Assembly: GCA_965227295.1 (NCBI GenBank) | Contig: OZ245742.1 | Span: 2,368,001 to 2,432,000, forward strand | From: Leptonemataceae bacterium | Lineage (GTDB): Bacteria > Spirochaetota > Leptospiria > Leptospirales > Leptonemataceae | Direction of reading: 5' to 3' | Length of the DNA: 64,000 nt | In this document: in pieces, positions 1 through 49,249 of the stretch | How the letters are laid out: every line of letters starts with the position of its first letter | Numbering within the stretch: the stretch's first letter is position 1 | Program-made: the position numbers and the translations under genes | The notes under the pieces: generated by a model | The model's database searches: none | The model's input: only the letters and a program-made list of their open reading frames with translations | What the model was told of the DNA's origin: nothing

Positions 1-274
1 GGGCAAGTCTGCCGTACAAGACGAAGCCCGCTGACCGAATGGGGGCACGAGTAGATCAGGCGGGTGCGGAAGGAAAGCCATCGTTCTTACCCGGGGAGGT
101 CTGCGTGCACGGCGTCTTAAATGGCGCGGAAGATCGGGCGACCGATATTCCAGGGTGCGCGCAGAAGTCAGCAGAGGCCATAGTAAGCCGTGCGATGCAG
201 TTTCCAGAGCGATAGGCATCAAACGGACGAAGGGCCGAACGATATTTCAGAGGGGAAAGCGGTAATCCTGAATC

Positions 275-1690
275 ATGCAGTATGAGCTGGACTTCGTGTT
301 GGCGGTATCATGCCCGGCGATTACCGGTGGAAACCTCGCGGATGAATCGAGGATGAGTGATAAGAATCACGCAACGACGAATCTGATGGATCGGATTCTT
401 GAGCGCGAGAACATGGAACGTGCGTTGCGCCGGGTCATTTCCAATAAAGGGAAGCCCGGCGTGGACGGTGTAACGGTGGAGGCGCTCAAGCCGTATCTTA
501 AGGTACATTGGGAACGTATTAAGCAAGAGCTTCGTGACGGTCGCTACCGACCGCAGCCGGTGCGCCGGGTGGAAATCCCGAAGCCGGACGGCGGCGTGCG
601 TCTGCTGGGTATCCCATGTGCCGTGGATCGTTTGATCCAGCAGGCCGTGTTACAGGTTCTGAATCCGATCTTCGATGCGAAATTCTCGGAATCCAGCTAC
701 GGTTTCCGGCCGGGGCGCAGTGCTCACGATGCGGTGCGCGCGGCCCGGGATCACGTACGCGCCGGATTCACGATCGTCGTGGACATCGACATCGAAAAGT
801 TTTTCGACAACGTAAACCACGACATCTTGATGGCCCGGGTTGCACGCACGCTCAAAGACAAAGCGGTGCTGAAGCTGCTGCGTCGCTATCTCCAGGCGGG
901 CGTGCTGATTAACGGCGTGCGTCTGGTGGGCGAAGAGGGTGTGCCGCAGGGTGGGCCGATCAGCCCGCTGCTGGCGAACATCATGCTGGACGACCTGGAC
1001 CGGGAACTGGAAAAACGCGGCCATCGCTTCTGTCGTTACGCCGATGATTGCAACATCTATGTGCGATCCATGGGCGCGGGACGCAGGGTGAAGGCGAGCA
1101 TTACTAAGTTCCTGGAAAAGAAACTTAAGCTGCGGGTGAACCCGGCGAAGAGTGCGGTGGATTATCCCCGGAAACGTAAGTTCCTGGGGTTTCGCATCCT
1201 GCGCCGCAAGAAGGGCGGGGTGCAAATCTTTATCGCGGAGCGTTCCATCGAACGACTGAAGGACGGCATCCGGCGGCTCACCAGAGCCCGGACGCCGATC
1301 TCATTCGAGGAACGCATCCGCCGACTGGTCGTGTATCTGCGCGGCTGGGCGGCATATTTCGCGCCGGGCGAAAACACCGCGGCCTTGAGCAAGATCTCCC
1401 AGTGGATGCGCCATCGGCTGCGCATGTGTCTGTGGCGACAGTGGCGACTCCCGCGAACTCAGATTCGGGAACTCACCAACAGAGGGCTCTCCTTGCGAGA
1501 TGCATTCCGGCTCGTCACCATGGCACGCAGCAAAGGCCCCTGGCGCATCTCCGGCACTCACCTGATGGGAATCGCCTTCTCTCCCGGCTACTTTCGCCGG
1601 CTCGGCCTCCTGAACATCGAAGAATTTTGCTTACGTAGCCGTCAAGGATATCGAACCGCCGTATACGGACCCGTACGTACGGTGGTGTGA
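275..1690 (+). CDS. ltrA: Group II intron reverse transcriptase/maturase without an HNH endonuclease domain; true start may be ~80-110 nt downstream
   Basis: Motifs NKGKPGVDG, RLLGIP, SYGFRPGRSAHDA, DIEKFFD, PQGGPISPLLANI, RYADD, FLGF and maturase RGWAAYF. The ORF reads through domain V. Confidence 0.95.
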   Translation: MQYELDFVLAVSCPAITGGNLADESRMSDKNHATTNLMDRILERENMERALRRVISNKGKPGVDGVTVEALKPYLKVHWERIKQELRDGRYRPQPVRRVEIPKPDGGVRLLGIPCAVDRLIQQAVLQVLNPIFDAKFSESSYGFRPGRSAHDAVRAARDHVRAGFTIVVDIDIEKFFDNVNHDILMARVARTLKDKAVLKLLRRYLQAGVLINGVRLVGEEGVPQGGPISPLLANIMLDDLDRELEKRGHRFCRYADDCNIYVRSMGAGRRVKASITKFLEKKLKLRVNPAKSAVDYPRKRKFLGFRILRRKKGGVQIFIAERSIERLKDGIRRLTRARTPISFEERIRRLVVYLRGWAAYFAPGENTAALSKISQWMRHRLRMCLWRQWRLPRTQIRELTNRGLSLRDAFRLVTMARSKGPWRISGTHLMGIAFSPGYFRRLGLLNIEEFCLRSRQGYRTAVYGPVRTVV

Positions 1691-1723
1691 GGGGCGGCGG
1701 GGAGAACCCGCCGCCTACTCGAT
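1653..1723 (+). ncRNA. Group II intron catalytic domain V and branch-site domain VI
   Basis: Short IIC-type DV followed by ggggcggcgg-ggagaa-cccgccgcctactc with a bulged A and a terminal AT. Confidence 0.92.
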
Positions 1724-4700
1724 CCCACATGCTTCTCGCGCGTAAACGCAAACGGCGAGGCCTGGGCCTATGCGCGCGCAACGACGGACGCGGCGAGTTT
1801 CAACAACGGCATGACGGCGTTGTACAACGCCGACGTTGCGGGACAGGCGGTGATCTACGCGGCGGGGCTGGGATTTCTGTTTCAGTTGTATGCGAAGGAC
1901 ACGGCGTTCAAGGATCAACTGGATCGTGCGATGGATCGGCTGTACGGATTGCCGACGACGAACCTGGTGCAACAGGGCAACGAACTGAAGAACCTGTACG
2001 CGGAACTGCACCGGCTCACGGACATAGACAGCGTGGAGAAACTGCGGGATGTGCTGGACGATCCGGAGTACGGCTTAACCGCGGATGATGTGGCATTAAT
2101 CCAGGGCAGCGGAACGTTAGATCAACTGATCTGGAAGGGCGGCAAAGAGGACTTAAGCCTGGATGATGTGGTGGGCGCGAACGGCCTGCCGATTGCGCAG
2201 GATAAGGCGATTCATGATGAGTTTGGATTTTATGTGCGAGACGGGGAATTTTCGGCCGGCAATATCACTGCGAATCCGACAGGGACGGACAAATACGGCC
2301 GCAGAATCGCACTGATGGTGAGCGCCGATGAATTCACGGACGCACTCGCGGCGATGTCACAGACGCAGTACGAGATCGAACGCGAAGAGTACTTCCGGGC
2401 AGCAGAGACAATGACGGAAGACCGTGTACAGGCGGACATGGTGACGATCCTGGATGAACGCGAAGAGTTCTATGGCACGTTGATGCAACAGGCCGCCAGC
2501 GTGGGCGTGCAGTTTGAAATGTACCGCAAACTCGCGGAAGACTATCACGGCGAAGGCGGCGTGGTAGACCAGGTGGCGGAGCTGGAGATCCAACAGCGAG
2601 TCGCATCCCAGAGACACGAATGGGACCTGCGCATGGAACAGTTCCGCAAGAAACGCCAGGAGTGGGGTGAAAACATTGCGCAGCTTACGAACGTGGGCGA
2701 GCAGAAGTGGAGCGACATGACCACCGAGATGGCCACGGCATGGAACGAGTGGCGGAAAGACTTCGACGCCGAAGCTAAGGCAGCGGAAGATCTGTACCTC
2801 GAACGTATTTCGGAAGCGATTGTAGACGAGCAGGAGTGGACGCAGGAATTCACAACGCTGGCGGCGCAAGGGGCGGACGAGCAGACGTTAAGAGAGCTGT
2901 ACGACGAAATCAATGAGATGGTGACGAATCTCAGAAGCGGCCTAGCGGCGGATATGCAGGTGGAGATCAACGCGAATGAGATCCTGAACCGCGTGCTGGC
3001 GAATAAACCGGACACACTGAACGAAAGCGTGGTGATGGCGGGGGAGTATGCCAACACGCAGATTTTCCTGGATGAGCTGAAGGACCAGAACTTCGACAAC
3101 AGCATTCAGGATCGTTATGATGATCTCAATGAACGTTACGGAGAAATGGCGCAGCGGCTCGTTAGACTGCAAAGCCTGGATAGTCTGTACGGATTGATTG
3201 ACCTGTTCGATGAAACGATCGCAGAAGCGAACGCCAGATTACAGTTGCAGATGGACCAGAAGATGGGCCAGACGAACTGGGTGAAGATGGGCGACTTGTA
3301 TACGAAGCAGATCAAAACGGCACAGGCAGTGCTTACGGGACAGCCGAGCATTCCCGTGTTTGCGCCTTCGTTCCACGATTACTTTTACTTGAAGCCGGAC
3401 CTCCGCAGTGAAGCGGTGGTGAAAGACTCGGAAGGCAAAGAGTGGAACCTAACAGACACTGAGTCCATATTAGCAGACGGCGGACCGAGCAGCGCGGAAC
3501 TGGAGAGCATGGTGCGCCTGGTGCGCAACAAACTGGAGAAGGAGTTCGAGCAAACCTACGATCCGGATGAGGAGGTGGACTACGAGGGCACCAGTGGATT
3601 GGTGTTCATTAACTGGCAACAGGCGCTGGCCGATGCGAGTGCGGCGGCGATTAACCCCTCCACGTGTAACTTAGCGGAAAGCATGGATGAATGCGCCCGG
3701 AACATTATGCAGTCCGGGTATACCGTGGGCCTTGTGGAAGGCGGAACGTTTGGACGCCACCACTTCGAGGAATACTACCGCGCACTGACAATCCGCAACT
3801 TCTTCGACCAGATGGAAGCAGACGGTAGAGCTATGCGCGAGAGTACCGGTGGACGCATGGGCCGGGACTTCGGGACGAACTTAACGGCCTTGCACCGTGG
3901 TGCGGTGCGGAACATGAGTTCCGCTCTCGATGTGCTGGAACGTAATTCGAAGTACGTCCAGATGCTTCAGGTTGCGAACAGGCAGTTACCGATTGCTCAG
4001 GCGCAAATCGGCGCGGCGCGGCGCGGACTGGATCAATACGAAGACATGAACCAGCGTGTGCGGGTGGGACTGAGCAAGGGCTGGCAGCGGAACGACGATG
4101 AGATCGACGCCGTGATTAAAGTCGGCGGCACGATTGTGGCGGGTGTGCTGTATGCCGTCTCGTTCGTCTTTCCTCCGGCGGCAGCCATCGCTTCCGGTGT
4201 TCTTGCAGCAGTAGGTTCGTACTCCGGAGTGCGGGGTAGCTACGAAGGCGGCACGAAAGGCGCGCTGGCGGGAGCGGCGAGTGTGGTGCCGGCGATCGTT
4301 AGTAAAGGTGCGGTGAATACAAACTTAAGCTACACGTTTCAGGAGGGCTGGAGTGTCGGCGTGGGCGCGGAGGTTTCGAAAGGCGTCGGCCTTGGTGTGA
4401 GCTATTCGGAACAAGCGGGTTGGGGTGGTAGCATCTCTCTCAGCGGCTCTCAGGGTGTCGGTCTTGATTTCAGCATTGGTGAGCAGGGTCGTTACGGTGT
4501 GGGCTTGAGTGTCGGCGGCTTATGGCAGACAGGGGATGCGAGTGGCGGTGCAGACCTGGGCTGGCGCGTTGGTTACAACACGGGGCCGGAAGGCGAAACC
4601 TATAGTGTCGGTCTGACGGGGTATGGCGGAGAGAAATACGGTCCGAATGGCAACGTCGGTATCGGTGTAACCTACAATCAGAATTTAGGTAACGGCTATT

Positions 4701-6217
4701 ACATTAGTGGCGGAGCGAACGGCGGCGCCGGGTCCGGTTACTTCGGTGGAACGGCAAGCTGGAACTGGACGCGTTTCGGCGGCAGTTCGGCCACGTTCGG
4801 TCTGACGTATAAGCCGCCGCGGCCTGATGATGACGGCAGTCCGATCGATACGCCGGAGGAGAAAACGGCGTTGGATATGTTTCTCGCCGCCGCACGGCGT
4901 GAGGCCGGTGAGGTCTGGGATGATGTCGGCGGCGGGCTTGGATGGCTGGGCGAGCAGGTGGCCGGCGGGTTTGGATGGTTGGGTGGTGCCGTTACTGGCG
5001 GTCTCGCGAGTGTGGCCGGAGCGCTGGGTTGGGAGAGTGGTGCGAATTGGTTGGCAGGGAATGGGTATGTCGACAACGCCACGGCGGAAGCGAATCAGCT
5101 GGCGGAGTTTCGGGCTTATGCCGCGAGAAAAGCGGAATTGGAACAATTAAAGCTAGGGCTAAGAGAAGGGAAAGTCCTAGTTAGAGAAACGGAAGATGGC
5201 CGTTGGATCTTTGTGGATGTCGAAACAGGAGAGTTCTATACTGACGATCCATTCGTTGGAGGACTCGTTCGTTCCGATGAAGAAGGTGTCTTCTATCTAG
5301 CTGGTCCGGTGGTTCCCCCGGCTTTGGCGGAAGCTATCGCGAAAGTGGAACAAACTATCGAAGATAGTGAACCCTTCCCGGATGCTGGAGATGCTGGCGA
5401 CGTTCTCGAGACAAGCGAAAAAATTCTTGAACAAGCAGAGCGACTGAAGAATTTCCGTAAGGCGTTGGGTGCACTCGGCAAGCTTCTTTCCGCGTATGAT
5501 ACTATTAATGATTCGGTGACAAGCATTAAGACACTGTCTGAGCGAGCAGAGGTGCAGGAGGAAATTGAGAGACTTGCCTTGAAGGAAATAGTTCATGACG
5601 AATGGGCCCGGAATACTGAAGCACGATACCGAGTGTCCCAGCGACTAAAAGAGCTAAACTCGGAACTGGGGAAAGTTACGACTACGGAGCAGCGGGAAAC
5701 TCTGACTCGGAGAATCCAACGGTTAGAGAGATTCCGTGATGAGGTACTATTACCTGCTAAACAGGAGCTTCTAATCCTAGAACGATTGAATCAATCTGTC
5801 GATAGAAGGCATAGCGGAGTCGGGGCGGCATTCAACGACTACTTAGAAATCGCCTATCCTTCAAAGGGAGCAGATCCATTCTACGATCCCCATTCAACAT
5901 TCGATTATGATGGGAACCCTCATGAACTGAATCTGACTGATCAAAGGAAGTTGAGGCTTCGGAGTGAGTATTACTCTGCTGTCGCATTGGGAGAGCAATA
6001 CTTCAATGAGACAGGTGCGAATGTGCGTTCACGGAGCATCTTTGGATGGCTTCCTTTTGGGGAATGGGGAAGCAAGGCTGGGAGAAAGCTCGATCAGCGC
6101 GGGTACGCGAGTCTCGATACGACTTTAAAGGGCTACTTGTGGCAAATGGCTTATCGGGCAGAAACTCTTCCAAACTGGCATGTGCGATATATCGATTTCG
6201 TTTCTGATAACTACTAA
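1724..6217 (+). CDS. 3' exon of a giant Leptospira 'longest protein' (TIGR04388-like) polymorphic toxin-like protein
   Basis: Frame is open from the first base after the intron (PTCFSRVNANGEAWAY...) into ORF 1811-6217, with no RBS before ATG 1811. Architecture: coiled-coil stalk, hydrophobic segment, Gly-rich beta-strand region, AT-richer unique C-terminus. Family assignment is from recalled similarity. Confidence 0.7.
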   Translation, partial: PTCFSRVNANGEAWAYARATTDAASFNNGMTALYNADVAGQAVIYAAGLGFLFQLYAKDTAFKDQLDRAMDRLYGLPTTNLVQQGNELKNLYAELHRLTDIDSVEKLRDVLDDPEYGLTADDVALIQGSGTLDQLIWKGGKEDLSLDDVVGANGLPIAQDKAIHDEFGFYVRDGEFSAGNITANPTGTDKYGRRIALMVSADEFTDALAAMSQTQYEIEREEYFRAAETMTEDRVQADMVTILDEREEFYGTLMQQAASVGVQFEMYRKLAEDYHGEGGVVDQVAELEIQQRVASQRHEWDLRMEQFRKKRQEWGENIAQLTNVGEQKWSDMTTEMATAWNEWRKDFDAEAKAAEDLYLERISEAIVDEQEWTQEFTTLAAQGADEQTLRELYDEINEMVTNLRSGLAADMQVEINANEILNRVLANKPDTLNESVVMAGEYANTQIFLDELKDQNFDNSIQDRYDDLNERYGEMAQRLVRLQSLDSLYGLIDLFDETIAEANARLQLQMDQKMGQTNWVKMGDLYTKQIKTAQAVLTGQPSIPVFAPSFHDYFYLKPDLRSEAVVKDSEGKEWNLTDTESILADGGPSSAELESMVRLVRNKLEKEFEQTYDPDEEVDYEGTSGLVFINWQQALADASAAAINPSTCNLAESMDECARNIMQSGYTVGLVEGGTFGRHHFEEYYRALTIRNFFDQMEADGRAMRESTGGRMGRDFGTNLTALHRGAVRNMSSALDVLERNSKYVQMLQVANRQLPIAQAQIGAARRGLDQYEDMNQRVRVGLSKGWQRNDDEIDAVIKVGGTIVAGVLYAVSFVFPPAAAIASGVLAAVGSYSGVRGSYEGGTKGALAGAASVVPAIVSKGAVNTNLSYTFQEGWSVGVGAEVSKGVGLGVSYSEQAGWGGSISLSGSQGVGLDFSIGEQGRYGVGLSVGGLWQTGDASGGADLGWRVGYNTGPEGETYSVGLTGYGGEKYGPNGNVGIGVTYNQNLGNGYYISGGANGGAGSGYFGGTASWNWTRFGGSSATFGLTYKPPRPDDDGSPIDTPEEKTALDMFLAAARREAGEVWDDVGGGLGWLGEQVAGGFGWLGGAVTGGLASVAGALGWESGANWLAGNGYVDNATAEANQLAEFRAYAARKAELEQLKLGLREGKVLVRETEDGRWIFVDVETGEFYTDDPFVGGLVRSDEEGVFYLAGPVVPPALAEAIAKVEQTIEDSEPFPDAGDAGDVLETSEKILEQAERLKNFRKALGALGKLLSAYDTINDSVTSIKTLSERAEVQEEIERLALKEIVHDEWARNTEARYRVSQRLKELNSELGKVTTTEQRETLTRRIQRLERFRDEVLLPAKQELLILERLNQSVDRRHSGVGAAFNDYLEIAYPSKGADPFYDPHSTFDYDGNPHELNLTDQRKLRLRSEYYSAVALGEQYFNETGANVRSRSIFGWLPFGEWGSKAGRKLDQRGYASLDTTLKGYLWQMAYRAETLPNWHVRYIDFVSDNY

Positions 6218-7197
6218 TGAAGATCTATATAGTCGGTTTCAGTAGTCTATGCTTTGCTATTCTTGGGGGCATCCATTTCATTCTAGCTGATAGTTTGCTA
6301 GAAGTTGATTCTGGACGACCCGTTCGAAGCATCTTGGTGAATCGGGATCCATCTTTTGTGGCCATAGGTTCCGATTCAGTAGGCTTTCGTAGCAATATCG
6401 CAGTATTCTGGCCTGGTAAGACAAGACCGACTCGGCTTTCTGGAGAGCGGGCTGTATATGCGATGGTTTTTCATCAAGGCTCTAGAACTCTTTATGCTGC
6501 AGGTGAATTCGGATATATTGAGAGCTTTCGATTGCCGACTGGCAATAGGCTTAGGCCGATTAGTTTTCCCGATGTCGAAATTCTGGCCTTAACCAAGGCA
6601 GGAACTGACAAACTGATAATTGCCGGGCACAATACGCACAGTAATCAGCCGTACTTGGGCCTGTACAGTATTCGACAGAAAAAGGTGAGCAACTCTGTCT
6701 TGTTCGCTGAAACGCGTGGGCAGGCGTTCGTATCTGACGTACATTATCATGAGAAATCAAAGTTACTTTTGGTTATGTTGCAAAGGCGAATGTACGTCTA
6801 CGAACTACCGGATTTTGATAGAAAATATGACAGACAGTTGCGAGGTACAGTGATTAGGCAGGCCGTTTTTTCCAAAGATGGTGGAACAATCATCTGGGGC
6901 GGTCTGTTTGGCGAGCTTGGCGCAATCCAGATTGCAGCAAGCGGTTCGAGCTTGGTTAAAGCAGCTCATGAAGGAGAAATCTTGGGGTTGGCTGAGAGCG
7001 ATGACGGTCTACTCGTCACATCTGGAGATGATAAACAAGTCAAGGTGTGGTCTTCTTATTCTGGCGGTCTTGCGTTGGTCGGGACCTGGCAGAGCCCTAC
7101 GGTTGTTACAGAAATAGTCGCGGAAGCTGGGCGTTTGTATCTAGGTATGGCGGATGGAAACCTTGAAGTGCTAGCGATGGAAGATTTTATGAAGTGA
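6217..7197 (+). CDS. Exported WD40/beta-propeller protein, putative cognate immunity or partner protein; last 5 codons displaced by IS481
   Basis: TAATG overlap with the upstream gene, N-terminal signal peptide, WD-like repeat (AHEGEILGL...LVTSGDDKQVKVW), AT-rich like the adjacent variable C-terminus. Confidence 0.7.
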   Translation: MKIYIVGFSSLCFAILGGIHFILADSLLEVDSGRPVRSILVNRDPSFVAIGSDSVGFRSNIAVFWPGKTRPTRLSGERAVYAMVFHQGSRTLYAAGEFGYIESFRLPTGNRLRPISFPDVEILALTKAGTDKLIIAGHNTHSNQPYLGLYSIRQKKVSNSVLFAETRGQAFVSDVHYHEKSKLLLVMLQRRMYVYELPDFDRKYDRQLRGTVIRQAVFSKDGGTIIWGGLFGELGAIQIAASGSSLVKAAHEGEILGLAESDDGLLVTSGDDKQVKVWSSYSGGLALVGTWQSPTVVTEIVAEAGRLYLGMADGNLEVLAMEDFMK

Positions 7198-8349
7198 AAT
7201 AGTCAAGATTCCATCTGACACTCCGATATAATTTGTATCGGAGGAAAGAGATGACAGCAGAACAAAAAATCGTAAAGCACCGGGTGGGCATCTTGAGGCT
7301 GGCCCGTACTCTGAATAACGTTGCAGAGGCTTGCCGGGTGATGGGCGTATCACGCGATACGTTCTACCGGTATCAGCGGTTGTACGAGACCGGAGGCGAA
7401 GAGGCCCTGAAGGATCTCACGCGGCGCAAGCCGAACAAGAAGAACCGGATTCCGGCGGATGTGGAAGACGCGGTGATCGAGTTCACGTTCGAGAAGCCGG
7501 CGCACGGTCAATTGCGCGTGTCGAATGAGCTGCGCAAGCGCGGCGTTTCGATCTCACCGGGCGGCGTGCGTCAGGTCTGGTTGCGGCACGACATGGAGAC
7601 GTTCAAGAAGCGTCTGAAGGCCCTGGAAGCCCGCGTCGCGCAAGAGGGGATCATTCTCACCGAGGCACAGGTCGCGGCGCTTGAGAAAGGCCGCCAGGAC
7701 AAAGAAGCGCACGGCGAGGTCGAATCGCACCACCCCGGCTATCTGGGCTCGCAGGACACGTATTACGTGGGCAATATCAAGGGCGTGGGGCGGATCTACC
7801 AGCAGACCTTCATCGACACGTACGCTAAGGTCGGCTTTGCAAAACTTTACGATCGCAAGAACGCACTGACGGCGGCCGACTTGCTGAACGATCGTGTGTT
7901 GCCGTTCTACGCGGACTACAACATCCCGCTGCTGCGCGTGCTCACCGATCGCGGCACGGAGTACTGCGGCAAGCCGGAGAATCACGAGTACGAGTTGTAC
8001 CTCGCGATGGAGGACATCGATCACACCAAAACCAAAGCGCGGCATCCGCAAACGAACGGCGTCTGCGAACGCTTTCACAAGACGATTCAGGAAGAATTCT
8101 ACGCCGTCGCGTTTCGCAAGAAACTTTACTCAAGCATCGAGGAGCTGCAAGCCGATCTGGATGAATGGATGCTCGAGTATAACCAGGAACGGACGCACAG
8201 CGGCAAGTACTGCTTCGGCAAGACGCCGGCGCAAACGTTCGCTGAATCCATCGCCGTGGCGCGTGAAAAGATGCTGCATAAACAGCATCAGGTATCGACC
8301 TGATCATATCTGACAGGCAGGAGTGTCAGATCGGGTGTTGGCTAGTACA
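7195..8349 (+). mobile_element. IS481-family insertion sequence
   Basis: 26-bp imperfect terminal inverted repeats (TGAAATAGTCAAGATTCCATCTGACA / rc TGTACTAGCCAACACCCGATCTGACA) and direct repeat TATGAAG at 7188-7194 and 8350-8356. Confidence 0.95.
7251..8303 (+). CDS. IS481-family DDE transposase
   Basis: N-terminal HTH (NVAEACRVMGVSRDTFYR) and integrase core (QDTYYVG, LTDRGTEYCG, PQTNGVCERFHKT, YNQERTH). RBS GGAGG precedes ATG 7251. Confidence 0.95.
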   Translation: MTAEQKIVKHRVGILRLARTLNNVAEACRVMGVSRDTFYRYQRLYETGGEEALKDLTRRKPNKKNRIPADVEDAVIEFTFEKPAHGQLRVSNELRKRGVSISPGGVRQVWLRHDMETFKKRLKALEARVAQEGIILTEAQVAALEKGRQDKEAHGEVESHHPGYLGSQDTYYVGNIKGVGRIYQQTFIDTYAKVGFAKLYDRKNALTAADLLNDRVLPFYADYNIPLLRVLTDRGTEYCGKPENHEYELYLAMEDIDHTKTKARHPQTNGVCERFHKTIQEEFYAVAFRKKLYSSIEELQADLDEWMLEYNQERTHSGKYCFGKTPAQTFAESIAVAREKMLHKQHQVST

Positions 8350-8370
8350 TATGAAGCGAGTACATTCGCA

Positions 8371-8550
8371 ATGAGATTACTTCAGCGTTCCGCTATTGCT
8401 CAGGCAATTCTTACAGTAGTATGTTTCATTTTCTTTTCTCTCTTTGGGCCGGACATATGGCATGGTGATCTTAAAGCAGGATTATTCGTAGCCGGTGTGA
8501 TCATTTTTTTCGTTGTGCTTTTCTTGCTTGGGAAAGTCGGCCAAAACTAA
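8371..8550 (+). CDS. Small two-TM membrane protein (59 aa), possible accessory or orphan immunity protein
   Basis: Two hydrophobic segments. Its ATG overlaps the original stop (ATGA) of the WD40 gene once IS481 is removed. Confidence 0.6.
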   Translation: MRLLQRSAIAQAILTVVCFIFFSLFGPDIWHGDLKAGLFVAGVIIFFVVLFLLGKVGQN

Positions 8551-8574
8551 ATTCGAAATCCGTCCCCGATTACC

Positions 8575-8901
8575 ATGGCGATCGAAACGCAACCTAGTCG
8601 TAGCCGAATCCTGGCGATTTTCCTTATAGGAATTGCCGTAGTTAGCTTTGCCGGCATGACCTGGAATCTTTCCGGGAAGAGATCCGTTCTCGAAGAAGTA
8701 GGTGTATTTGAGTTATTGATAGCTGCTGCTCTTTTTGGGCTTCCCTTTATTTCTGCATGGGGTCTTTGGTTTCATCGGCCATGGAGCTACTTTTCTGCCC
8801 TACTTGTAGCTATCGGTTATGTATTCAATTTCCCAGTCGGAACAGTCGTTGCCGCAATTGTTTTTTGCCTTCTGATACTGTCCTGGTCCGAAAGGGATTA
8901 G
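8575..8901 (+). CDS. Small multi-TM membrane protein, possible orphan immunity protein
   Basis: 108 aa with 3-4 hydrophobic segments, AT-rich, same strand as the island genes. Confidence 0.65.
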   Translation: MAIETQPSRSRILAIFLIGIAVVSFAGMTWNLSGKRSVLEEVGVFELLIAAALFGLPFISAWGLWFHRPWSYFSALLVAIGYVFNFPVGTVVAAIVFCLLILSWSERD

Positions 8902-9034
8902 TTGTCTCTTCCGGTCGATGTGTAAAGGAGCAGTTAAATGCTTGCAAGTCGGCGCGAGCCAATCGAGTCCTTCAGCCAGACTGGCACCAGCAATACATAT
9001 TCGAAATCATTCAGAGGACGTCTTATGATTAGGT

Positions 9035-9210
9035 TGTAAGCTTGAAATACTCATCCACGCCTTCAAGCGGCTTCCCAATGATAAGTAGAATGCAGCCCGC
9101 CGAGCACAGGTCTTCGCAAGACCCGTACGTTATTTTTTTGGTGGCGGTTCTGTCTGACGGCCCTCCGGCGAACCGAGGTCCACAGACGCGTGCGTGCGGT
9201 GCCGATTGTA
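9035..9210 (-). pseudogene. Remnant of the 3' end of the integrase-core element at 13667+
   Basis: Aligns with 13667-13841, shares the end TGTAAGCTTGAAATAC and encodes ...PVLGGLHSTYHWEAA*. Confidence 0.85.
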
Positions 9211-9607
9211 GTTGCAAACGTAGATTGCTCGTCGCATACTTGCTGAAATGTGCCCAACAGGCACGCCGAAATGGCCACTGTAACGGAGACGTTTCGGATG
9301 AGATCAGAGGATCTTTAACAGGCAAGCAGTGATAGTCTGAACGGACTGACTGCGGCGAGAAGAAACAGCAGAGGTTCGCCTCTGCCGAAGCGATATGTTG
9401 AATTCCGCACACGTGTGCGGAATTCGCCCTTCGAGAGTCGGGGCCGCTGAGTTCTTTGCGGCTAATATCTGATTCACAAGCGTTAGCGATGCGGAGGGTG
9501 GCGCGCAGCGCCAGTCTCGCGTCTTCGCGAGACCGCAGCGAAGCGGAGCCCGTAGCAGCGCGACGGCCCGCCGCCTCCGCGGCGCGGCGGGCCGGAACGC
9601 CCAGAGC
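9203..9607 (+). repeat. Cassette-leader module, copy 1 (~400 bp direct repeat of 13108-13513)
   Basis: Near-identical to 13108-13513; the last 140 bp (9468-9607) are identical to 13374-13513. Contains a perfect palindrome at 9400-9425. Confidence 0.92.
9479..9602 (+). repeat. GC-rich multi-hairpin structured repeat (REP-like, possibly Flavo-1-like), copy 1
   Basis: Hairpins ggcgc/gcgcc, gtctcgcg/cgcgagac and cggcccgccgc/gcggcgggccg; ends GAACGCCC. Related copies at 13385 and 52089. Confidence 0.75.
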
Positions 9608-9611
9608 AGCA

Positions 9612-12410
9612 GAAACAATCGCAGAAGCGAACGCCAGATTACAGTTGCAGATGGACCAGAAGATGGGCCAGACGCACTGGGTGAAGATGGGCGATGTGTA
9701 TACGAAGCAGATCAAAACGGCACATGCGGTGCTCACGGGACAGCCGAGCATTCCTGTATTTGCGCCGTCGTTCCACGACTACTTTTACTTAAAGCCGGAC
9801 CTGCGCAGCGAGGCGGTGGTGAAAGACTCGGAAGGTAAGGAGTGGAACCTAACAGACACCGAGTCTATATTAGCAGACGGCGGACCGAACAGCGCGGAAC
9901 TGGAAAGCATGGTGCGGCTGGTGCGTAACAAGCTGGAGAAAGAGTTCGAACAAACCTACGATCCGGATGAGGAAGTGGACTATGAAGGAACGAGTGGGCT
10001 GGTGTTTATTAACTGGCAACAGGCCCTTGCGGACGCGAGTGCGGCCGCGATTAACCCATCCACGTGTAACTTAGCAGAATCCATGGATGAATGTGCGCGG
10101 AACATTATGCAGTCCGGGTATACCGTGGGCCTCGTGGAAGGCGGGACGTTTGGACGGCACCACTTCGAGGAGTACTACCGCGCACTGACAATCCGCAATT
10201 TCTTCGACCAGATGGAAGCAGACGGTAGAGCTATGCGTGAGTCTACGGGTGGTCGCATGGGCCGGGACTTCGGGACGAATTTGACGGCCTTGCACCGTGG
10301 TGCGGTGCGAAACATTGACTGGGCGTTGAATACTCTGGAACGTAATTCGAAGTACGTCCAGATGTTACAGATTTCTCAAGGCCAGCCCCCGATGTTCCGG
10401 TCGCAAGTCGGAGCAGCAAGACGCGGGCTGAGTGAGTTTGACGACTTCAACCAGCGTGTGCGGGTGGGACTGAGCAAGGGCTGGCAGCGGAACGACGATG
10501 AGATCGACGCCGTGATTAAAGTGGGCGGGACCGTTGTTGCCGGGGCACTGTATGCACTTTCGGCTGTATTGCCATTCCTGGCACCCGCGTTAGTGCCCGT
10601 GGCCAGCGGAATTATGGCCGGGGTGGGTGCGTACTCCGGAGTGCGTGGTAGTTATGAAGGCGGCACGAAAGGCGCGCTGGCGGGAGCGGCGAGCGTGGTG
10701 CCGATGATAATCTCCAAAGGTGCCATCAACACGAACTTAAGCTACACGTTTCAGGGTGGCTGGAGCGCCGGTATAGGCGCGCAGGTTACCGAAGGTGTGG
10801 GTGTCGGTGCGAATTACTCGGAGCAGGGCGGCTGGGGCGGCAATGTTAGCATTGGCCTCGGCGATTCACCGCTCGCTCTTGATTTGAGCGTGGGCGAGTA
10901 CGGGCGTTACGGCGCGGGGCTGACGTACAGCTTTGTGAAGTCACCGGAAACTGCGAAGATTCAGAAACATCTGGGCCTGCGTTTTGGGTATGATCGTGGA
11001 CCGGAAGGCGTAACGTACAGCGCCGGTCTCGTGGGCAGCGTGGGTAACAAGGCCAACGGCTACGCCGGCGGCGGGAACATCGGTCTGACTCACAATCATT
11101 TGAACGGGACCGGCTTTTACCTCGGTGCGAGCGGCAGCGGCGGCGATTATTCGCAGGGCCTCGGCGGGCAGGCGAGCTACAACTGGAGTCGCTTCGGTGG
11201 CAGCTCTACGACCTTCGGCATTACGTATACCCGTCCGCCGGAGGAACACGGGAGTCCGCTGGACAGCCCGTATGAAAAAAATATGTTCGACACGTTCATG
11301 GCGGCGACACGCCGGAATGTAGATGAGTTCTGGGGTGATGTCGGCGGTGGGCTTAGCTGGTTCGGAGAGCAAGTTACGGGCGGTCTCGCAAGCGTGGCCG
11401 GGGCTCTGGGCTGGGAGAGTGGCGCGAACTGGTTGGCGGGTAGAGGATATGTCGACAACGCCACGGCAGAAGCGAATCAGCTTGCGGAGTTTCAGGCGTA
11501 TGCGCTGGAACGTGATACAGAGGAATTTATTCGGCTCGGTGTCCAGGACCGTGCCGTTCCAGTGGGGGAAACACCTGAAGGTAAATGGCTGTTCTATGAT
11601 CCGGTTACAGGAGATTTCTGGTCAGAGAACGGGGATGGTGGACTGAAGCTGGTAACCGAAGATGGTGAGGAAGTTCAGTACGTTCGGGGCAAGAAAAGTC
11701 GCAAGGGAAATAGGTTCCGGTCGGGCAAAAGCTCTGGGGTCAAGAACTCGAAGCGACAATATGCCAAGGCCAAAGAATTCTTTGCGAATCAGCTCAAGAA
11801 TGATTCAAATGCAAAAAGACATCAGGAAAAACAATATAACAATGCGAATATGACAGCGGAGGATAAATTGAATCTTTCTCGGTCACTGGCTGAAAAGCAC
11901 TTGCGAGAAAACTCATCGCAACCAGGAACTCGACCGACTTTACTGGGCGAAGTCATTGCGGAGGGATTAGTATGGTCAGAGGAAATCTTGGCTCAGAAAA
12001 CTATGGATGCTCTTGATAGCGAGTATGAAGATTTAGTTGAATTGCATAGAGAATCGTACACGTCAGGATCGGTAACGACGGATGCGCCAGGACTGGGGGA
12101 CTTAGTAAGGACTCAACTATCAAATAATCGCAGAAAGATCCTTGATCGCGAAGTAGCTAGAGTGGTTGAGAGTACGGAAGTCGCATGGAGCCTCGAAAAT
12201 GGACTCGATCCGGCTACAGCTATTGATCGAGCTATCGACAGTAGCGTGCGATCCTTTGAGTCGAGTATCAGACCGGCTCCTCTGCCGGGTGAGAATACCT
12301 ATTGGAAAGACATCTGGTATGATTCGTTAACTACGGTTGAAGTTAAAATGATCAAGAATCGCGCGTTAAAAGAGTTGATGATTCGAAACCGAAAGAGGAT
12401 GGACCGATGA
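9612..12410 (+). CDS. Orphan 5'-truncated cassette of the giant polymorphic protein with an alternative C-terminal domain
   Basis: Homologous to 3212 onward of the main gene (ETIAEANARLQLQMDQKMG...), almost identical protein for ~230 aa, mosaic afterwards and unrelated after ~11690. No clear RBS or start of its own. Confidence 0.85.
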   Translation, partial: ETIAEANARLQLQMDQKMGQTHWVKMGDVYTKQIKTAHAVLTGQPSIPVFAPSFHDYFYLKPDLRSEAVVKDSEGKEWNLTDTESILADGGPNSAELESMVRLVRNKLEKEFEQTYDPDEEVDYEGTSGLVFINWQQALADASAAAINPSTCNLAESMDECARNIMQSGYTVGLVEGGTFGRHHFEEYYRALTIRNFFDQMEADGRAMRESTGGRMGRDFGTNLTALHRGAVRNIDWALNTLERNSKYVQMLQISQGQPPMFRSQVGAARRGLSEFDDFNQRVRVGLSKGWQRNDDEIDAVIKVGGTVVAGALYALSAVLPFLAPALVPVASGIMAGVGAYSGVRGSYEGGTKGALAGAASVVPMIISKGAINTNLSYTFQGGWSAGIGAQVTEGVGVGANYSEQGGWGGNVSIGLGDSPLALDLSVGEYGRYGAGLTYSFVKSPETAKIQKHLGLRFGYDRGPEGVTYSAGLVGSVGNKANGYAGGGNIGLTHNHLNGTGFYLGASGSGGDYSQGLGGQASYNWSRFGGSSTTFGITYTRPPEEHGSPLDSPYEKNMFDTFMAATRRNVDEFWGDVGGGLSWFGEQVTGGLASVAGALGWESGANWLAGRGYVDNATAEANQLAEFQAYALERDTEEFIRLGVQDRAVPVGETPEGKWLFYDPVTGDFWSENGDGGLKLVTEDGEEVQYVRGKKSRKGNRFRSGKSSGVKNSKRQYAKAKEFFANQLKNDSNAKRHQEKQYNNANMTAEDKLNLSRSLAEKHLRENSSQPGTRPTLLGEVIAEGLVWSEEILAQKTMDALDSEYEDLVELHRESYTSGSVTTDAPGLGDLVRTQLSNNRRKILDREVARVVESTEVAWSLENGLDPATAIDRAIDSSVRSFESSIRPAPLPGENTYWKDIWYDSLTTVEVKMIKNRALKELMIRNRKRMDR

Positions 12411-12940
12411 AGTCTATACCGTTAAGAACTACAATATTGATATTACTCTTGCTGATGCCGTGGACAGTCGACTGTCGGCCGCAAAGTGAAAACCACTCTA
12501 ATACAAGCTGTGAGATAAACATTGACTTCGAAAAGGGTACGAAGGAGTTCCCAATAGGTCAAAAGTTCACGCCTGAGTCAATACGAGCCTATGGATTTAC
12601 GAAGCTAGAAATGGGCGATGATTTTCTGGAAGGCTCAGGATTGCGAAATTTCTATCACAACGGCACCAAGACAATTCTGATTGCTTATTCCGATGAGGAT
12701 GTACTGGTTCATGTCTCTATCGAGGCAAAGGAAGACGTTTGCTTTCGGGGGCAACTGATTCGAGATCATAATCCGTACGCCTTTTACGAGGCCTTACAAC
12801 AGGCTGGAGCTTCCATTCCGATACAGGATGCAGATGAAATTCGAGACGGCTTTCGGGTTCCCGGGCCTCGGGTTGAAATTCGGGTGGTAACAGAAAACGA
12901 TTCGATACAGAGAATTTTAGTTAGTGAGTATGTCGAATAA
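12407..12940 (+). CDS. Exported protein or putative lipoprotein, candidate immunity protein for cassette 2
   Basis: ATGA overlap with cassette 2, signal peptide MKSIPLRTTILILLLLMPWTVDC, AT-rich, unrelated to the WD40 protein. Confidence 0.7.
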   Translation: MKSIPLRTTILILLLLMPWTVDCRPQSENHSNTSCEINIDFEKGTKEFPIGQKFTPESIRAYGFTKLEMGDDFLEGSGLRNFYHNGTKTILIAYSDEDVLVHVSIEAKEDVCFRGQLIRDHNPYAFYEALQQAGASIPIQDADEIRDGFRVPGPRVEIRVVTENDSIQRILVSEYVE

Positions 12941-12996
12941 GTCAGATTGGGCTGCTGAATGCGACTCTGACTTTGTGTAAATAGATTCTTGCACTC

Positions 12997-13107
12997 TGTA
13001 AGCTTGAAATACACATCAAAGCCTCCAGGCGGCCCCACGCCGGGTTATCCCTTGCGAGTCTTTGAATGAGCCGGATTTCTTCGACTGGAATTCGCGGCCG
13101 GCGCGGT
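12997..13107 (-). pseudogene. Internally deleted remnant of the integrase-core element
   Basis: Same end TGTAAGCTTGAAATAC fused to a segment encoding RPRIPVEEIRLIQRLARDNPAWG, homologous to RPCIPEHVKEFIGRLARDNPSWQ of the 13695-14612 protein. Confidence 0.8.
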
Positions 13108-13513
13108 CGATTGTAGTTGCAAACGTAGATTGCTCGTCGCATACTTGCTGAAATGTGCCCAACAGGCACGCCGAAATGTCTGACGTAATGGAGACGTTTC
13201 GGATGAGATCAGAGGATCTTTAACAGGCAAGCAGTGATAGTCTGAACGGACTGACTGCGGCGAGAAAAGGCAGCAGAGCTTCGCCTCTGCCGAAGCGATA
13301 TGCTGAATTCCGCACACGTGTGCGGAATTCGCGTCTCGGTTCCCGGAGGATGTTCAGCTCTTTGCGGCTAATGTCTGATTCACAAGCGTTAGCGATGCGG
13401 AGGGTGGCGCGCAGCGCCAGTCTCGCGTCTTCGCGAGACCGCAGCGAAGCGGAGCCCGTAGCAGCGCGACGGCCCGCCGCCTCCGCGGCGCGGCGGGCCG
13501 GAACGCCCAGAGC
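13108..13513 (+). repeat. Cassette-leader module, copy 2
   Basis: Direct repeat of 9203-9607, with the palindrome at 13305-13330. Confidence 0.92.
13385..13508 (+). repeat. GC-rich multi-hairpin structured repeat, copy 2
   Basis: Identical to 9479-9602. Confidence 0.75.
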
Positions 13514-13514
13514 C

Positions 13515-13666
13515 GCAGAAGCGAACGCACGCCTGCAACTCCAGATGGACCAGAAGATGGGCCAGACGAACTGGGTGAAGATGGGCGACTTGTACACGAA
13601 GCAGATCAAAACGGCACAGGCAGTGCTTACGGGACAGCCGAGCATTCCCGTGTTTGCGCCTTCGTT
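13515..13666 (+). pseudogene. Third cassette of the polymorphic gene, truncated after ~50 codons by the integrase element
   Basis: Encodes AEANARLQLQMDQKMGQTNWVKMGDLYTKQIKTAQAVLTGQPSIPVFAPSF and is then joined directly to TGTAAGCTTGAAATAC. Confidence 0.88.
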
Positions 13667-14680
13667 TGTAAGCTTGAAATACTCATCCACGCCTTCAAGC
13701 GGCCTCCCAATGATACGTAGAATGCAGCCCGCCGAGCACAGGTTTTCGCAAGAGCCGCACGTTATTACCGGGTGGCGGTCCTGTCTCACGGCCCTCCGGT
13801 GAATCGAGGTCCACAGACGCGTGCGTGCGGTGCTGATTGTAATACGCCATGTATTCCAGCAGGCGTTGGCGCACCACGGTCTCGCTCAACGGCAGCATGA
13901 ACTGCAGCAGTTCTTCCCGCACGGTCCGGACGAACCGTTCGGCAATCCCATTCTGCCAGGGGCTTGCGATCTGCGTGCACAGAGAAACAAGGTCGAGCGT
14001 GCCTTCGATAAACTCCCGAACAGGCTGAAACAGAACGTCGTTATCCGAGATCAAGAACCGCAATATATGCGGTTGGCCGACGAATGCCTGAATCAATTGC
14101 TCGCGAATCCAGTCGGCAGTGGGACGTTCGGTAACATTCAAACAGAGCAACTTACGACGTTCGTGCTGGATGACGAAGAAACCAAACAAAGGGTTTTTCC
14201 CGATCCGCGGAATTGCAAAGAAATCCATGGCCGAAATACTCGGACAGTGCAATTTAAGAAATGTCGCCCAACTGAGAACGCGCCGCGGGTCCGGGTTGCG
14301 CTTCGGCCTGTATTTGCGAACGGTGTCTATATGAAGCCGTTCACCCAGGACGCGGAAGACTTCGCCCTGGATTCTGCGTGGCTGCCACGATGGATTGTCG
14401 CGGGCAAGGCGGCCGATGAATTCTTTAACATGTTCAGGAATGCACGGGCGACCGCCGCGCTTACGGAAACTGGTGACGAACGTCCAGAAGTCTTTGTATC
14501 TTCGCCTGTGCCAGTCGAGGACGGTGGCGGGGGTTACGAACAATGTCACGCTCCGCCAGGCGTCGGGAAACAGGCGCACGGTGCACATACAGAAAACGCT
14601 GATGATAAACAAGCGTAAGGATTACGCAGACGAGGAAGATTGTCACGAACCAGAGTCTGTCGCTAACGAGAAGATGCAAT
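13667..14680 (-). mobile_element. Integrase-core (rve/DDE) IS-like element; far end not resolved
   Basis: Sharp end TGTAAGCTTGAAATAC at 13667, also present at 9035 and 12997. No matching inverted end recognised. Confidence 0.7.
13695..14612 (-). CDS. Integrase core domain transposase; N-terminus probably degenerate
   Basis: TPATVLDWHR, LARDNPSW, AMDFF, LISDND, SPWQNGIAERFVRTVREE, YYNQHRTH, GGLHSTY. Upstream sequence appears frameshifted. Confidence 0.85.
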   Translation of the reverse strand: MFIISVFCMCTVRLFPDAWRSVTLFVTPATVLDWHRRRYKDFWTFVTSFRKRGGRPCIPEHVKEFIGRLARDNPSWQPRRIQGEVFRVLGERLHIDTVRKYRPKRNPDPRRVLSWATFLKLHCPSISAMDFFAIPRIGKNPLFGFFVIQHERRKLLCLNVTERPTADWIREQLIQAFVGQPHILRFLISDNDVLFQPVREFIEGTLDLVSLCTQIASPWQNGIAERFVRTVREELLQFMLPLSETVVRQRLLEYMAYYNQHRTHASVDLDSPEGRETGPPPGNNVRLLRKPVLGGLHSTYHWEAA

Positions 14681-14894: not shown

Positions 14895-15269
14895 TCAGCC
14901 GGGCATTCCTATAAAGACCCGCTCGCCGTCGATGCGAACGCCGTAGGTCGCGATGCGAAACTCCGGATCGCTGAGGCATTCCCCGCTTTCGAGGGCGAAG
15001 GTCTTTTTGTGCATGGGGCACGCGACTTTGGGGACACCGCCGGCGTCTCCCAGCAGGCCGCGGGCGAGCACGTTTTCTTTCTTATGCGGACACGTGTTAT
15101 CGCAGGCGAACCAACGCCCCTGCGCTCGAAAGTTATACACGGCGATCTGCCGCCCTTCGATCTTAACGGCGAGGCCGCCGTCCTCGGGGAAGTCGTCGAC
15201 CGTGCCCGCTTCCATCCACACCAGATTCTGTTGTTCCTGTTTCATTGCCACCGGCATATCGTGCTCCAT
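14895..15269 (-). CDS. nirD: Nitrite reductase (NADH) small subunit, Rieske-like
   Basis: DNTCPHKKENVLARGLLGD...VACPMHKKTFALESGECL; directly downstream of nirB. Confidence 0.93.
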   Translation of the reverse strand: MEHDMPVAMKQEQQNLVWMEAGTVDDFPEDGGLAVKIEGRQIAVYNFRAQGRWFACDNTCPHKKENVLARGLLGDAGGVPKVACPMHKKTFALESGECLSDPEFRIATYGVRIDGERVFIGMPG

Positions 15270-15299
15270 TTACTAGAATAATCTACCCGAATGTTAGTA

Positions 15300-17801: not shown

Positions 17802-18594
17802 GAGTGGTTCCTTCCAGAATAGAATGATTTACTAACATAACTTCCGCGCAACCTTGTCCCGCCTGACGCAAGACCTGCACGACCTTACCGATGTAGATGA
17901 TGCCGGGTCCGGCGCATAACGCCGTCGGCGGCGCGGACTGCGCATCACCCAGCACACCGAAGTGCGTACGTTGTTCCACCGAAGACGCGCTCTCAACGAG
18001 AGCGAACGGCAGCGACGGCGCGGCGCCGTGCCGTAACAATTCCCCGGCAATCTCTACGAAACGATGCTTGCCCATAAAGATCACCACGGTGCCCGCGAAA
18101 CTTGCGACCGCCGCCCAGTCCTGCTCGCGATCGTGACCGTTGAGGACCATGACGGCCCCGGCCACCCCGCGATGCGTCAGCGGAATGCCGGCCAGGGCCC
18201 CGGCCGCGTTCAACGCGGACATGCCCGGCACGACCTCGCAATGAATGCCGCGCTCTCGAAGATACAGCAGCTCTTCGCCGCCGCGACCGAAGACAAACGG
18301 ATCCCCGCCCTTCAGGCGGACCACGCGCAAGCCTGCCGCCGCGTGTTCGTAGAGGATCGCCTGGATCTCTTCCTGCGAACAGGCGTGGGCACCGCAGCGC
18401 TTGCCGACGTACATCAGCTTCGCGTGCGCCGGAAAGACTTCGTGAAACGAAGCGTCGATCAGTGCGTCGTAGAGAATGACCTCGGCCTGTTGTAAGATGC
18501 GCAGGCCCTTCACGCTCAGATAATCCACGTGTCCCGGCCCGGCGCCGACTAACGTTACCGAACCGGAAGTTTGTAGCGTTTGCGTCGTCATCAT
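17794..18594 (-). CDS. cobA: Uroporphyrinogen-III C-methyltransferase
   Basis: VTLVGAGPG and RLKGGDPFVFGRGGEE; ATGA overlap with the upstream gene at 18591-18594. Confidence 0.93.
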   Translation of the reverse strand: MMTTQTLQTSGSVTLVGAGPGHVDYLSVKGLRILQQAEVILYDALIDASFHEVFPAHAKLMYVGKRCGAHACSQEEIQAILYEHAAAGLRVVRLKGGDPFVFGRGGEELLYLRERGIHCEVVPGMSALNAAGALAGIPLTHRGVAGAVMVLNGHDREQDWAAVASFAGTVVIFMGKHRFVEIAGELLRHGAAPSLPFALVESASSVEQRTHFGVLGDAQSAPPTALCAGPGIIYIGKVVQVLRQAGQGCAEVMLVNHSILEGTTHG

Positions 18595-23554: not shown

Positions 23555-23581
23555 GATTGCTTCCAGGATCGGGCGGCGGAC

Positions 23582-37612: not shown

Positions 37613-37652
37613 GCGGTTTAGTCCGGAGCGCCGAACATCGAGTTCGCCTTTT

Positions 37653-49096: not shown

Positions 49097-49249
49097 CGTC
49101 ACTGTAGTATTAGAATCGGCCGGTTTCGCGATTTGCCCGCGCAAATTCCTGCGACCGCCGCCGCCGATTAAGATAGAGTCGTCCGTCATTCGGTTCATGT
49201 CATCCTCCCAACGCGCACACTATAGCACGGGGGTGTGACATTATTTGTT

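Follow-up and report, generated by a model that had tools for sequence, protein, structure and literature searches.

A 64,000-nucleotide stretch of the genome of a Leptonemataceae bacterium (GenBank assembly GCA_965227295.1, contig OZ245742.1, forward-strand positions 2,368,001 to 2,432,000; hereafter the window, with positions counted from its first letter) contains three collinear plus-strand copies of one coding sequence, each belonging to a family of giant proteins found so far in this genome and in other Leptospirales. The region is probably a polymorphic toxin locus, in which a giant exported protein ends in an exchangeable, predicted toxin and silent spare cassettes are kept downstream; toxicity, immunity and delivery are all predicted. 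A conserved body followed by a variable C-terminus, the layout expected of such systems, was found in all 10 family sequences that were aligned, whose 10 tails all differ after the shared body, and likewise in the comparison of copy 1 with its closest full-length paralogue, P0009. The orphan cassettes expected of an array are represented by copy 2 and, as a stump, by copy 3.

Copy 1 is an open reading frame (ORF) at 1811-6217 (1468 amino acids), whose frame is already open from 1724 and whose conserved scaffold occupies 1724..5290 on the plus strand. Copy 2 lies within the ORF 9456-12410; its homology to copy 1 begins at 9612, which is equivalent to 3212, and its scaffold part (9612..11675, plus strand) is homologous to 3212-5290 with the frame intact. 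DNA identity between the two copies is about 0.91 at 3270-3900 (copy 1 positions), 0.58-0.84 at 3900-4430 and 0.5-0.76 up to about 5140, and is at background level beyond about 5230, while the protein alignment ends at FYLAGP in copy 1 and QYVRGK in copy 2, that is, at 5291 and 11676. Copy 3 (13515..13666, plus strand) is a 152-nt scaffold stump sharing 94% identity with copy 1 and 88% with copy 2; its homology stops where an insertion begins at 13667. A preliminary description of this DNA, prepared from its letters and translated reading frames, had reported the two repeats (9612-12410 and 13515-13666, both matching copy 1 from 3212), the motifs conserved between them, the break at FYLAGP/QYVRGK and the AT-richer DNA beyond it, and all of these observations were reproduced: the GC content falls from 0.58 to 0.46-0.48 past the break. 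In detail, GC is 0.575 and 0.578 in the scaffolds of copies 1 and 2, 0.483 and 0.459 in their variable ends, 0.469 and 0.446 in the genes downstream of these and 0.61 in the remainder of the window, so that it is lower by 0.10-0.13 across each variable end and its partner gene.

The variable C-terminal modules, CT1 (5291..6217, plus strand, 308 amino acids) and CT2 (11676..12410, plus strand, 244 amino acids), are candidate toxins and are unrelated to each other, with 13% identity over 190 aligned positions. Each is followed by a gene that overlaps its stop codon, as the preliminary description had noted: P0004 (6217..7197, plus strand, 326 amino acids) is translationally coupled to CT1 through TAATG at 6215-6219, and P0005 (12407..12940, plus strand, 177 amino acids) to CT2 through ATGA at 12407-12410. 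The N-termini of both proteins are basic and then hydrophobic, which was judged by eye to be an export signal, again in agreement with the earlier account; otherwise the two proteins are unrelated. P0004 carries WD40-like beta-propeller repeats (7.8e-8, 33 bits with a cutoff of 27), while P0005 matched no family in Pfam, NCBIfam or PADLOC and retrieved from the Atlas unnamed clusters only, at 0.91-0.92; PADLOC returned 0 matches for the 6 proteins submitted to it. The position, coupling and unrelatedness of the two genes fit those of immunity genes, and P0004 may serve CT1 as an immunity or accessory protein, while P0005 may be the immunity protein of CT2. Two small multi-pass membrane ORFs on the plus strand, 8323-8550 (75 amino acids) and 8575-8901 (108 amino acids), lie in a low-GC stretch (0.455 for 8331-9034) that is separated from P0004 by an insertion sequence of the IS481 family. 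Neither matched a family in Pfam or PADLOC; they may be further immunity genes of the first cassette, or of a lost cassette, that were split off by this element.

No more than seven relatives came out of the homology searches. Of 7999 scored candidates 807-2569 amino acids long, only the query, P0008 (which is copy 2) and P0007, an orphan-like paralogue of 1018 amino acids located elsewhere on the same contig, were matched, while 2869 candidates of 2570-5000 amino acids included P0009 (4210 amino acids, 94% identity), P0010 (4322, 54%), P0011 (3616, from Leptospira sp. 201903075, 30%) and P0012 (3660, 28%). P0009 is encoded on the same 5.94-Mb contig as copy 1. The identity of the carrier to the giant proteins of Leptospirales is 26-35% over the N-terminal and the conserved C-terminal parts, and homology spans the N-terminal 2,700 residues, which bears out the earlier designation of a Leptospira-type giant protein. 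The more specific assignment to TIGR04388 failed: none of seven family proteins (P0001, P0002, P0007 and P0009-P0012) matched at E<=0.01, in searches of NCBIfam release 20.0 for which the inclusion of that model was unchecked. Copies 1 and 2 were recognised by neither Pfam nor NCBIfam, and for the family protein P0001 there was no PDB sequence match below E 0.17.

The tails of these relatives bear on what the variable ends do. Over copy-1 residues 469-1050 (about 580 residues), identity between copy 1 and P0009 is 100%; beyond them the two proteins diverge to unrelated ends, of which that of P0009 is Ntox30 (PF15532, E 1.2e-24, residues 4116-4207), a domain catalogued among those of polymorphic toxins (PMC3482391). 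The C-terminus of P0012 is Endonuclea_NS_2 (3.2e-28). Related loci in other genomes were sampled by means of two peptide patterns, whose 116 matches yielded 3 loci: contigs of metagenome-assembled genomes of a Leptospiraceae and a Leptonemataceae bacterium, and Leptospira chreensis. In one of the three (L002), an ORF overlapping the end of the giant gene carries PT-HINT (1.5e-22) together with Peptidase_M91 (1.1e-8). PT-HINT is a processing domain typical of polymorphic toxin systems. This ORF, at 13171-14244 of L002, overlaps the last 37 nt of the 3783-residue giant gene in another frame; the break may be a frameshift error in the metagenome-assembled genome or may be real, and the natural protein may continue into the toxin.

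Leptospira chreensis (L003), the only one of the three retrieved loci with enough downstream DNA to judge its layout, repeats the arrangement seen in the window. A giant gene of 3621 codons is followed by a coupled ORF of 114 amino acids, which has no export-type signal, by two small ORFs and by an orphan of 739 amino acids. The 5'-truncated orphan is 76% identical to residues 2924-3350 of the giant protein (430 amino acids; 75.6% over 1275 nt), with the homology beginning exactly at its ATG, and it continues into a new tail of about 310 amino acids and a coupled, exported ORF of 208 amino acids. Upstream of this orphan, the segment 15680-15917 looks GC-richer than the AT-rich DNA around it and seems to form hairpins, both as judged by eye; it had no Rfam match. 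At the other end of the locus, an ORF of 194 amino acids at 2199-2783, with an export-type N-terminus and no Pfam match, shares 4 nt with the beginning of the giant gene and is possibly a conserved accessory of the carrier.

Further evidence on CT1 came from a search of 1,835,955,588 representatives, in which its sole relative was the C-terminal 290 amino acids of P0013 (HMMER, E 4.9e-23; 31% identity, 305 aligned positions). The N-terminus of P0013 is an eCIS_core/DUF4157 domain (8e-7, 29.6 bits with a cutoff of 22), and the combination of an N-terminal DUF4157 with a C-terminal toxin is an architecture described for toxins associated with extracellular contractile injection systems (eCIS) (PMC8213781). 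Because its only relative occupies the C-terminal position on a different carrier, CT1 is, on sequence grounds, a portable module. Recognised toxin families (Ntox30, Endonuclea_NS_2 and PT-HINT with Peptidase_M91) occur on relatives of the scaffold and CT1 is linked to a second scaffold through P0013, while for CT2 no relative was found: there was no homologue among 3633 candidates of 428-2000 amino acids, no usable Atlas match, no Pfam match at E<=10 and PDB sequence matches only at E>1.

The statement in the preliminary description that copy 1 is a full gene proved to be wrong. Its frame opens at 1724, the first base past a group II intron (1..1723, plus strand) whose 5' end lies beyond the window. 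Rfam matched intron domains I to IV at 1-85 and 127-235 and domains V/VI at 1654-1723 (48.5 bits with a gathering score of 40), and an intact reverse transcriptase/maturase is encoded at 275-1690 (RVT_1 and GIIM; TIGR04416 at 419 bits with a cutoff of 300). The frame from 1724 aligns to residues 2729-3893 of P0009, with 1114 of 1191 positions identical (BLASTP), and the window therefore holds just the last third or so of the giant gene; the scaffold of copy 1 is the conserved part of its 3' exon (1724-6217), corresponding to about residues 2725-3893 of P0009. At the intron-exon junction, copy 1 reads PT...GEAWAYAR and P0009 reads FPTAWDGEAWAYAR, the two junction residues (PT) matching those of P0009. 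The 5' exon is not in the window, as the N-terminal 2725 residues of P0009 had no tblastn match within its 64 kb. It was concluded from these alignments that copy 1 is the 3' exon of a gene of about 4,200 codons split by a group II intron, with putative splicing.

Substitution patterns indicate that copy 2 has been maintained. Its frame is intact over 2.8 kb, and relative to copy 1 the ratio of nonsynonymous to synonymous substitution rates (dN/dS) is 0.035 at a dS of 0.43 over the first 230 codons and 0.25-0.40 at a dS of 0.77-1.34 beyond them, dS increasing three-fold along the homology arm. Copy 2 has thus evolved under purifying selection and behaves as a coding sequence held in reserve rather than as a decaying one. 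Furthermore, the paralogues show mosaic structure, from which it follows that recombination within the shared arm has occurred, as the rise in dS along the arm also suggests. At residues 730-800, P0007 shares 97% identity with copy 1, while at 860-920 it is 74% identical to copy 2 versus 47% to copy 1, and copy 1 itself is P0009-like to about residue 1085 and copy-2-like at 1085-1110 (76% versus 43%), just before its own tail.

A non-coding, hairpin-rich leader of 405 nt, designated Y, lies directly 5' of copy 2 (9207..9611, plus strand), and a second copy lies directly 5' of copy 3 (13107..13514, plus strand). The two leaders are 94-97% identical, and their junctions with copies 2 and 3 differ only by a 12-nt indel between GCAGAA repeats. 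Because they share both the leader and the 5' junction, copies 2 and 3 are not independent; thus, the coincident start of the third copy noted in the preliminary description is real, but it represents one inherited junction and not a separate event. The folding energy of Y lies at z = -4.9 relative to shuffles, and the leader holds a perfect 26-nt palindrome, GAATTCCGCACACGTGTGCGGAATTC. Leader Y was considered as an intron and as an RNA gene; it had no Rfam match at E<=1 and does not represent the 3' end of another intron. A GC-rich hairpin of about 62 nt within Y (9542-9603 and 13448-13509, identical) recurs with 82% identity at 52156-52217 in an unrelated intergenic region and may be a genome-wide repeat resembling repetitive extragenic palindromes.

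Next to the 5' end of Y lie remnants of rve-type transposase genes. Every remnant has as its boundary the 16-mer TGTAAGCTTGAAATAC, which occurs at 9035, 12997 and 13667 (3 matches versus 0.2 expected). Fragment X (9035..9206, minus strand) comprises the 3' end of such a gene with the element end; it is 93% identical to 13661-13841, and its minus-strand translation matches the C-terminus of the ORF 13695-14612. Fragment X' (12997..13106, minus strand) is a different, shorter remnant with the same 16-mer and the same junction with Y. The third 16-mer is the boundary of the insertion that truncates copy 3, a degenerate rve/IS481-like element (13667..14650, minus strand) with a transposase ORF at 13695-14612 (rve_3 at 8.7e-11; NF033577 at 69.7 bits, under the cutoff of 224) and an undefined far end; an inverted partner of the 16-mer was not found at <=3 mismatches. 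The IS481-family element behind P0004 (7213..8330, plus strand) is intact, with a transposase at 7233-8303 (NF033577 at 284.6 bits with a cutoff of 224) and 12-nt terminal inverted repeats, ATCTGACACTCC. No target-site duplication was seen at its ends, which suggests rearrangement rather than simple insertion.

How the carrier might reach another cell was approached through its composition and a structure model. By eye, the N-terminus of full-length members consists of a long basic region, a hydrophobic core and an FAQ/YAQ site, and the following residues (about 3,400) contain much Ala, Glu and Leu but little Pro; the body is probably helical rather than a beta-helix. Within the scaffold, 3998..5308 (plus strand) encodes a predicted membrane module. 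An AlphaFold2 model of this segment from a 9-row alignment contains two hydrophobic helices, 12 amphipathic beta-strands, a glycine-zipper stretch and a small beta domain before the variable end, with a low mean predicted local distance difference test score (pLDDT) of 52.7 and values of 55-80 in the strands. The top Foldseek matches were all outer-membrane barrels (the invasin/intimin beta-domain, FapF, NanC, KdgM and NalP), at E 2e-5 to 3e-4 and template modelling scores (TM-scores), by target, of 0.4-0.59; the best were 4e1t and 4e1s, with NalP lower in the list. Across the family, the alternation of hydrophobic and small or polar residues in the 12 strands scored 2.72, versus 1.06 +/- 0.22 in shuffled sequences, a value reached by 0 of 2000 shuffles. 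The predicted barrel is internal, with about 3,500 residues before and about 450 after it. We infer that the carrier is exported by Sec and that the barrel module would be used either at its own outer membrane, in a type V-like manner, or at that of the target, in which case it would be similar to the FHA-2 region of CdiA.

The arrangement closely resembles contact-dependent growth inhibition (CDI), in which CdiA, a giant exported protein whose body is conserved and whose C-terminal toxin varies, is encoded with CdiB, with the immunity gene cdiI directly 3' and with orphan arrays (PMC3150448). In the account given in that publication, the orphans are promoterless and 5'-truncated, have varying upstream homology and are at times cut by insertion elements; identity between orphan modules extends over 3,648 nt, so that the homology arms of about 2 kb described here are not unusually long, as had been supposed (PMC3150448). 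Within CdiA, the beta-rich, membrane-inserting FHA-2 region is followed by the pretoxin domain and the toxin, placing it where the barrel is predicted here (PMC13625785). The carrier differs from CdiA in that the two-partner secretion (type Vb) domain and haemagglutinin repeats are absent, without any such Pfam match in 4 full-length proteins, and the VENN motif occurs in none of 7 carrier proteins. The junction motif is instead G.W.F.D..TG.F ... YLAGP, the Ala/Glu/Leu-rich body is probably helical, unlike the beta-helix of CdiA, and none of the 3 ORFs that precede the L. chreensis giant gene is CdiB-like or had a Pfam match.

Rhs loci also combine a main gene with downstream orphan fragments that lack start and export signals and are activated by recombination with the main gene (PMC3967940), and they likewise show a GC shift at the variable tip. 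The present carrier differs from Rhs proteins in having no RHS/YD repeats (Pfam) and no DPxGL near any C-terminal junction, the sole DPxGL being at residue 1345 of P0009, far from its tail. Autotransporters and inverse autotransporters, such as NalP and intimin/invasin, share with it a 12-stranded barrel, here a predicted one, and an exported part within one Sec-exported chain; unlike them, the carrier has no sequence match to autotransporter or IAT_beta models, and its barrel is internal and was modelled with moderate confidence. The likeness to eCIS-associated toxins lies in the homology of CT1 to the C-terminal part of the DUF4157 protein P0013, while CT1 sits on a different carrier and no eCIS genes were found among the window ORFs scanned. 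Finally, the L. interrogans protein LA_3725, which was compared by description only, is a large leptospiral protein with an N-terminal transmembrane segment and a PT-HINT domain near its C-terminus, as in the L002 relative, and has been linked to polymorphic toxin systems; no cassette array is described in the paper on LA_3725 (PMC4751964).

In the proposed mechanism, CT1 and CT2 would be toxins from which P0004, P0005 and possibly the two small membrane ORFs would protect the producer. Because P0004 and P0005 appear to be exported, envelope-acting toxins would fit these two cassettes. Homologous recombination in the shared 2-kb arm would fuse an orphan module onto the full-length gene and change the toxin that is displayed, while orphan immunity genes would give standing protection. 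More speculatively, the carrier would be exported by its extended Sec signal, a long alpha-helical stalk and the internal 12-stranded barrel would anchor or translocate it at an outer membrane, and the module after the barrel would be handed to a neighbouring cell, an arrangement that resembles that of CdiA. Since an export signal is missing from the L. chreensis main-gene partner and P0012 ends in a nuclease, the carrier would need to deliver to both compartments, like CDI. A tentative and rather doubtful extension is that these features make up a self-contained delivery system of Leptospirales type, a type V-like branch without a separate transporter, in which a single Sec-exported chain of about 4,000 residues would combine a helical stalk, an internal 12-stranded barrel, a pretoxin beta domain and a swappable toxin with its own library of silent cassettes.

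Several observations weigh against the interpretation as a polymorphic toxin locus. Neither CT1 nor CT2 matches a toxin family or has a recognisable catalytic motif; CT1 matched nothing in Pfam or, by sequence, in the PDB, and its structure model was all-helical and unusable (pLDDT 45.3). A complex prediction for CT1 (2-row alignment) with residues 26-326 of P0004 scored 0.55, 0.00 and 0.67, versus 0.43 for a control in which chain 1 was replaced, and counts neither for nor against their association. As an immunity protein, P0004 would be large, and its beta-propeller is of a generic kind; the small membrane ORFs could be equally plausible partners of CT1. Overall confidence in the barrel model is low and its TM-scores are modest, and neither a partner transporter nor a receptor-binding domain was identified. 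Copy 1 might itself be silent if splicing does not occur, since it is interrupted by an intron and its 5' exon is outside the window. The family's range and generality are poorly sampled, because only 3 related loci were recovered from two peptide patterns. Lastly, promoter-like sites in the region were not above chance (4 found versus 4.9 +/- 2.6 expected), and the array was assembled by mobile-element rearrangement, which can be neutral: transposase debris lies directly against the 5' ends of the orphans, and a single junction is common to copies 2 and 3.

The last of these points raises the alternative that the extra copies are non-functional pseudogene fragments, left behind when a large gene was disrupted and duplicated by insertion sequences and the intron. 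Three transposase-derived pieces and a group II intron inside 14 kb, a shared junction with a leader embedded in transposase remnants, a third copy reduced by an element to a 152-nt stump and the lack of an excess of promoter-like sites are all what such debris would leave behind. Yet the dS of 0.43-1.34 shows that copy 2 did not arise from copy 1 by recent duplication, and copy 2 retains an open frame under purifying selection together with an unrelated C-terminus and coupled gene of its own; moreover, the L. chreensis orphan follows the same logic without these elements, and insertion elements are known inside CDI orphan arrays as well (PMC3150448). On the evidence of selection, mosaicism and conservation, debris is considered an unlikely explanation.

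The preliminary description had left open whether the silent cassettes serve interbacterial competition or surface variation, and the cassette layout and the toxin tails of the relatives are consistent with the former. Were the C-termini exposed, non-toxic domains exchanged for adhesion or for escape from phages or hosts, the directional silent cassettes, long homology arms and mosaic paralogues would be expected equally, CT1 and CT2 would have no toxin signature, as observed, and the adjoining outer-membrane module would be well placed. Such a system would have no need of a small coupled gene travelling with each module, however, nor would it account for relatives on the same scaffold that end in Ntox30, a non-specific endonuclease or PT-HINT with Peptidase_M91, or for the recurrence of CT1 in a protein built like eCIS cargo; given the toxin tails on relatives and a partner gene specific to each cassette, surface variation is very unlikely. 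Delivery by the same carrier of effectors aimed at eukaryotic hosts, grazers, fungi or other prey is also quite unlikely, because the partner genes imply self-protection: tight coupling to cassette-specific partners and orphan arrays are hallmarks of protection from kin-directed toxins (PMC3150448; PMC3967940), and exported partners suit toxins that work in the bacterial envelope. Its attraction lies in the eCIS cargo architecture of the only relative of CT1, eCIS targets including eukaryotes (PMC8213781), in the Pfam label of Peptidase_M91, 'Effector protein', and in a Leptospiraceae-specific toxin domain, PT8, reported to be antifungal, with the kinship of its carrier to the present family unchecked (bioRxiv 10.1101/2021.10.19.465003). 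A polymorphic toxin locus directed at other bacteria thus remains the preferred interpretation.

Toxin systems with orphan cassettes, such as CDI, Rhs and MafB, are familiar from Proteobacteria. This type of system is not new in itself, while the carrier family, its possible built-in barrel and the occurrence in bacteria of the Leptospirales type appear to be new. In the open full-text literature on Leptospira polymorphic toxins, pretoxin/HINT domains and TIGR04388, with subscription literature and supplements not covered, no account of the carrier family or of its cassette arrays was found; that on Leptospira yielded only a mention of PT-HINT in one large protein of L. interrogans and a single Leptospiraceae-specific toxin domain, and the word Leptospira is absent from the first 300,000 characters of the text of Zhang et al. 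2012 (PMC3482391). If the interpretation is correct, the locus would offer a handle on how Leptospirales-type bacteria compete, two toxin candidates of unfamiliar fold, each with an exported partner, and a new route by which a protein domain could leave one diderm cell and enter another. The pair formed by copy 1 and P0009, with identical bodies and different tails, makes the proposed swap directly checkable.

Other genes of the window are of separate interest. A nitrate/nitrite assimilation cluster on the minus strand (14895-24922) directly adjoins the array and encodes a NirD-like Rieske protein, NirB (1110 bits), a tetrapyrrole methylase, a rubredoxin/NIR_SIR protein, a major facilitator superfamily transporter and a molybdopterin nitrate reductase of 1173 amino acids fused to a pyridine-nucleotide oxidoreductase. 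The minus strand also carries a gene for a protein with PA14 and FG-GAP repeats (36083-38029) and a stand-alone C-5 cytosine DNA methylase gene (48002-49198). Within a che operon (CheA/W at 54458-56593, CheR at 60485-61327 and CheB at 61872-62972), a plus-strand gene at 56439-59891 encodes a chemoreceptor of 1150 amino acids whose sensor part matches eukaryotic-type carbonic anhydrase (3.1e-42) and is followed by HAMP and methyl-accepting chemotaxis protein domains; it could be a receptor that senses CO2 or bicarbonate.

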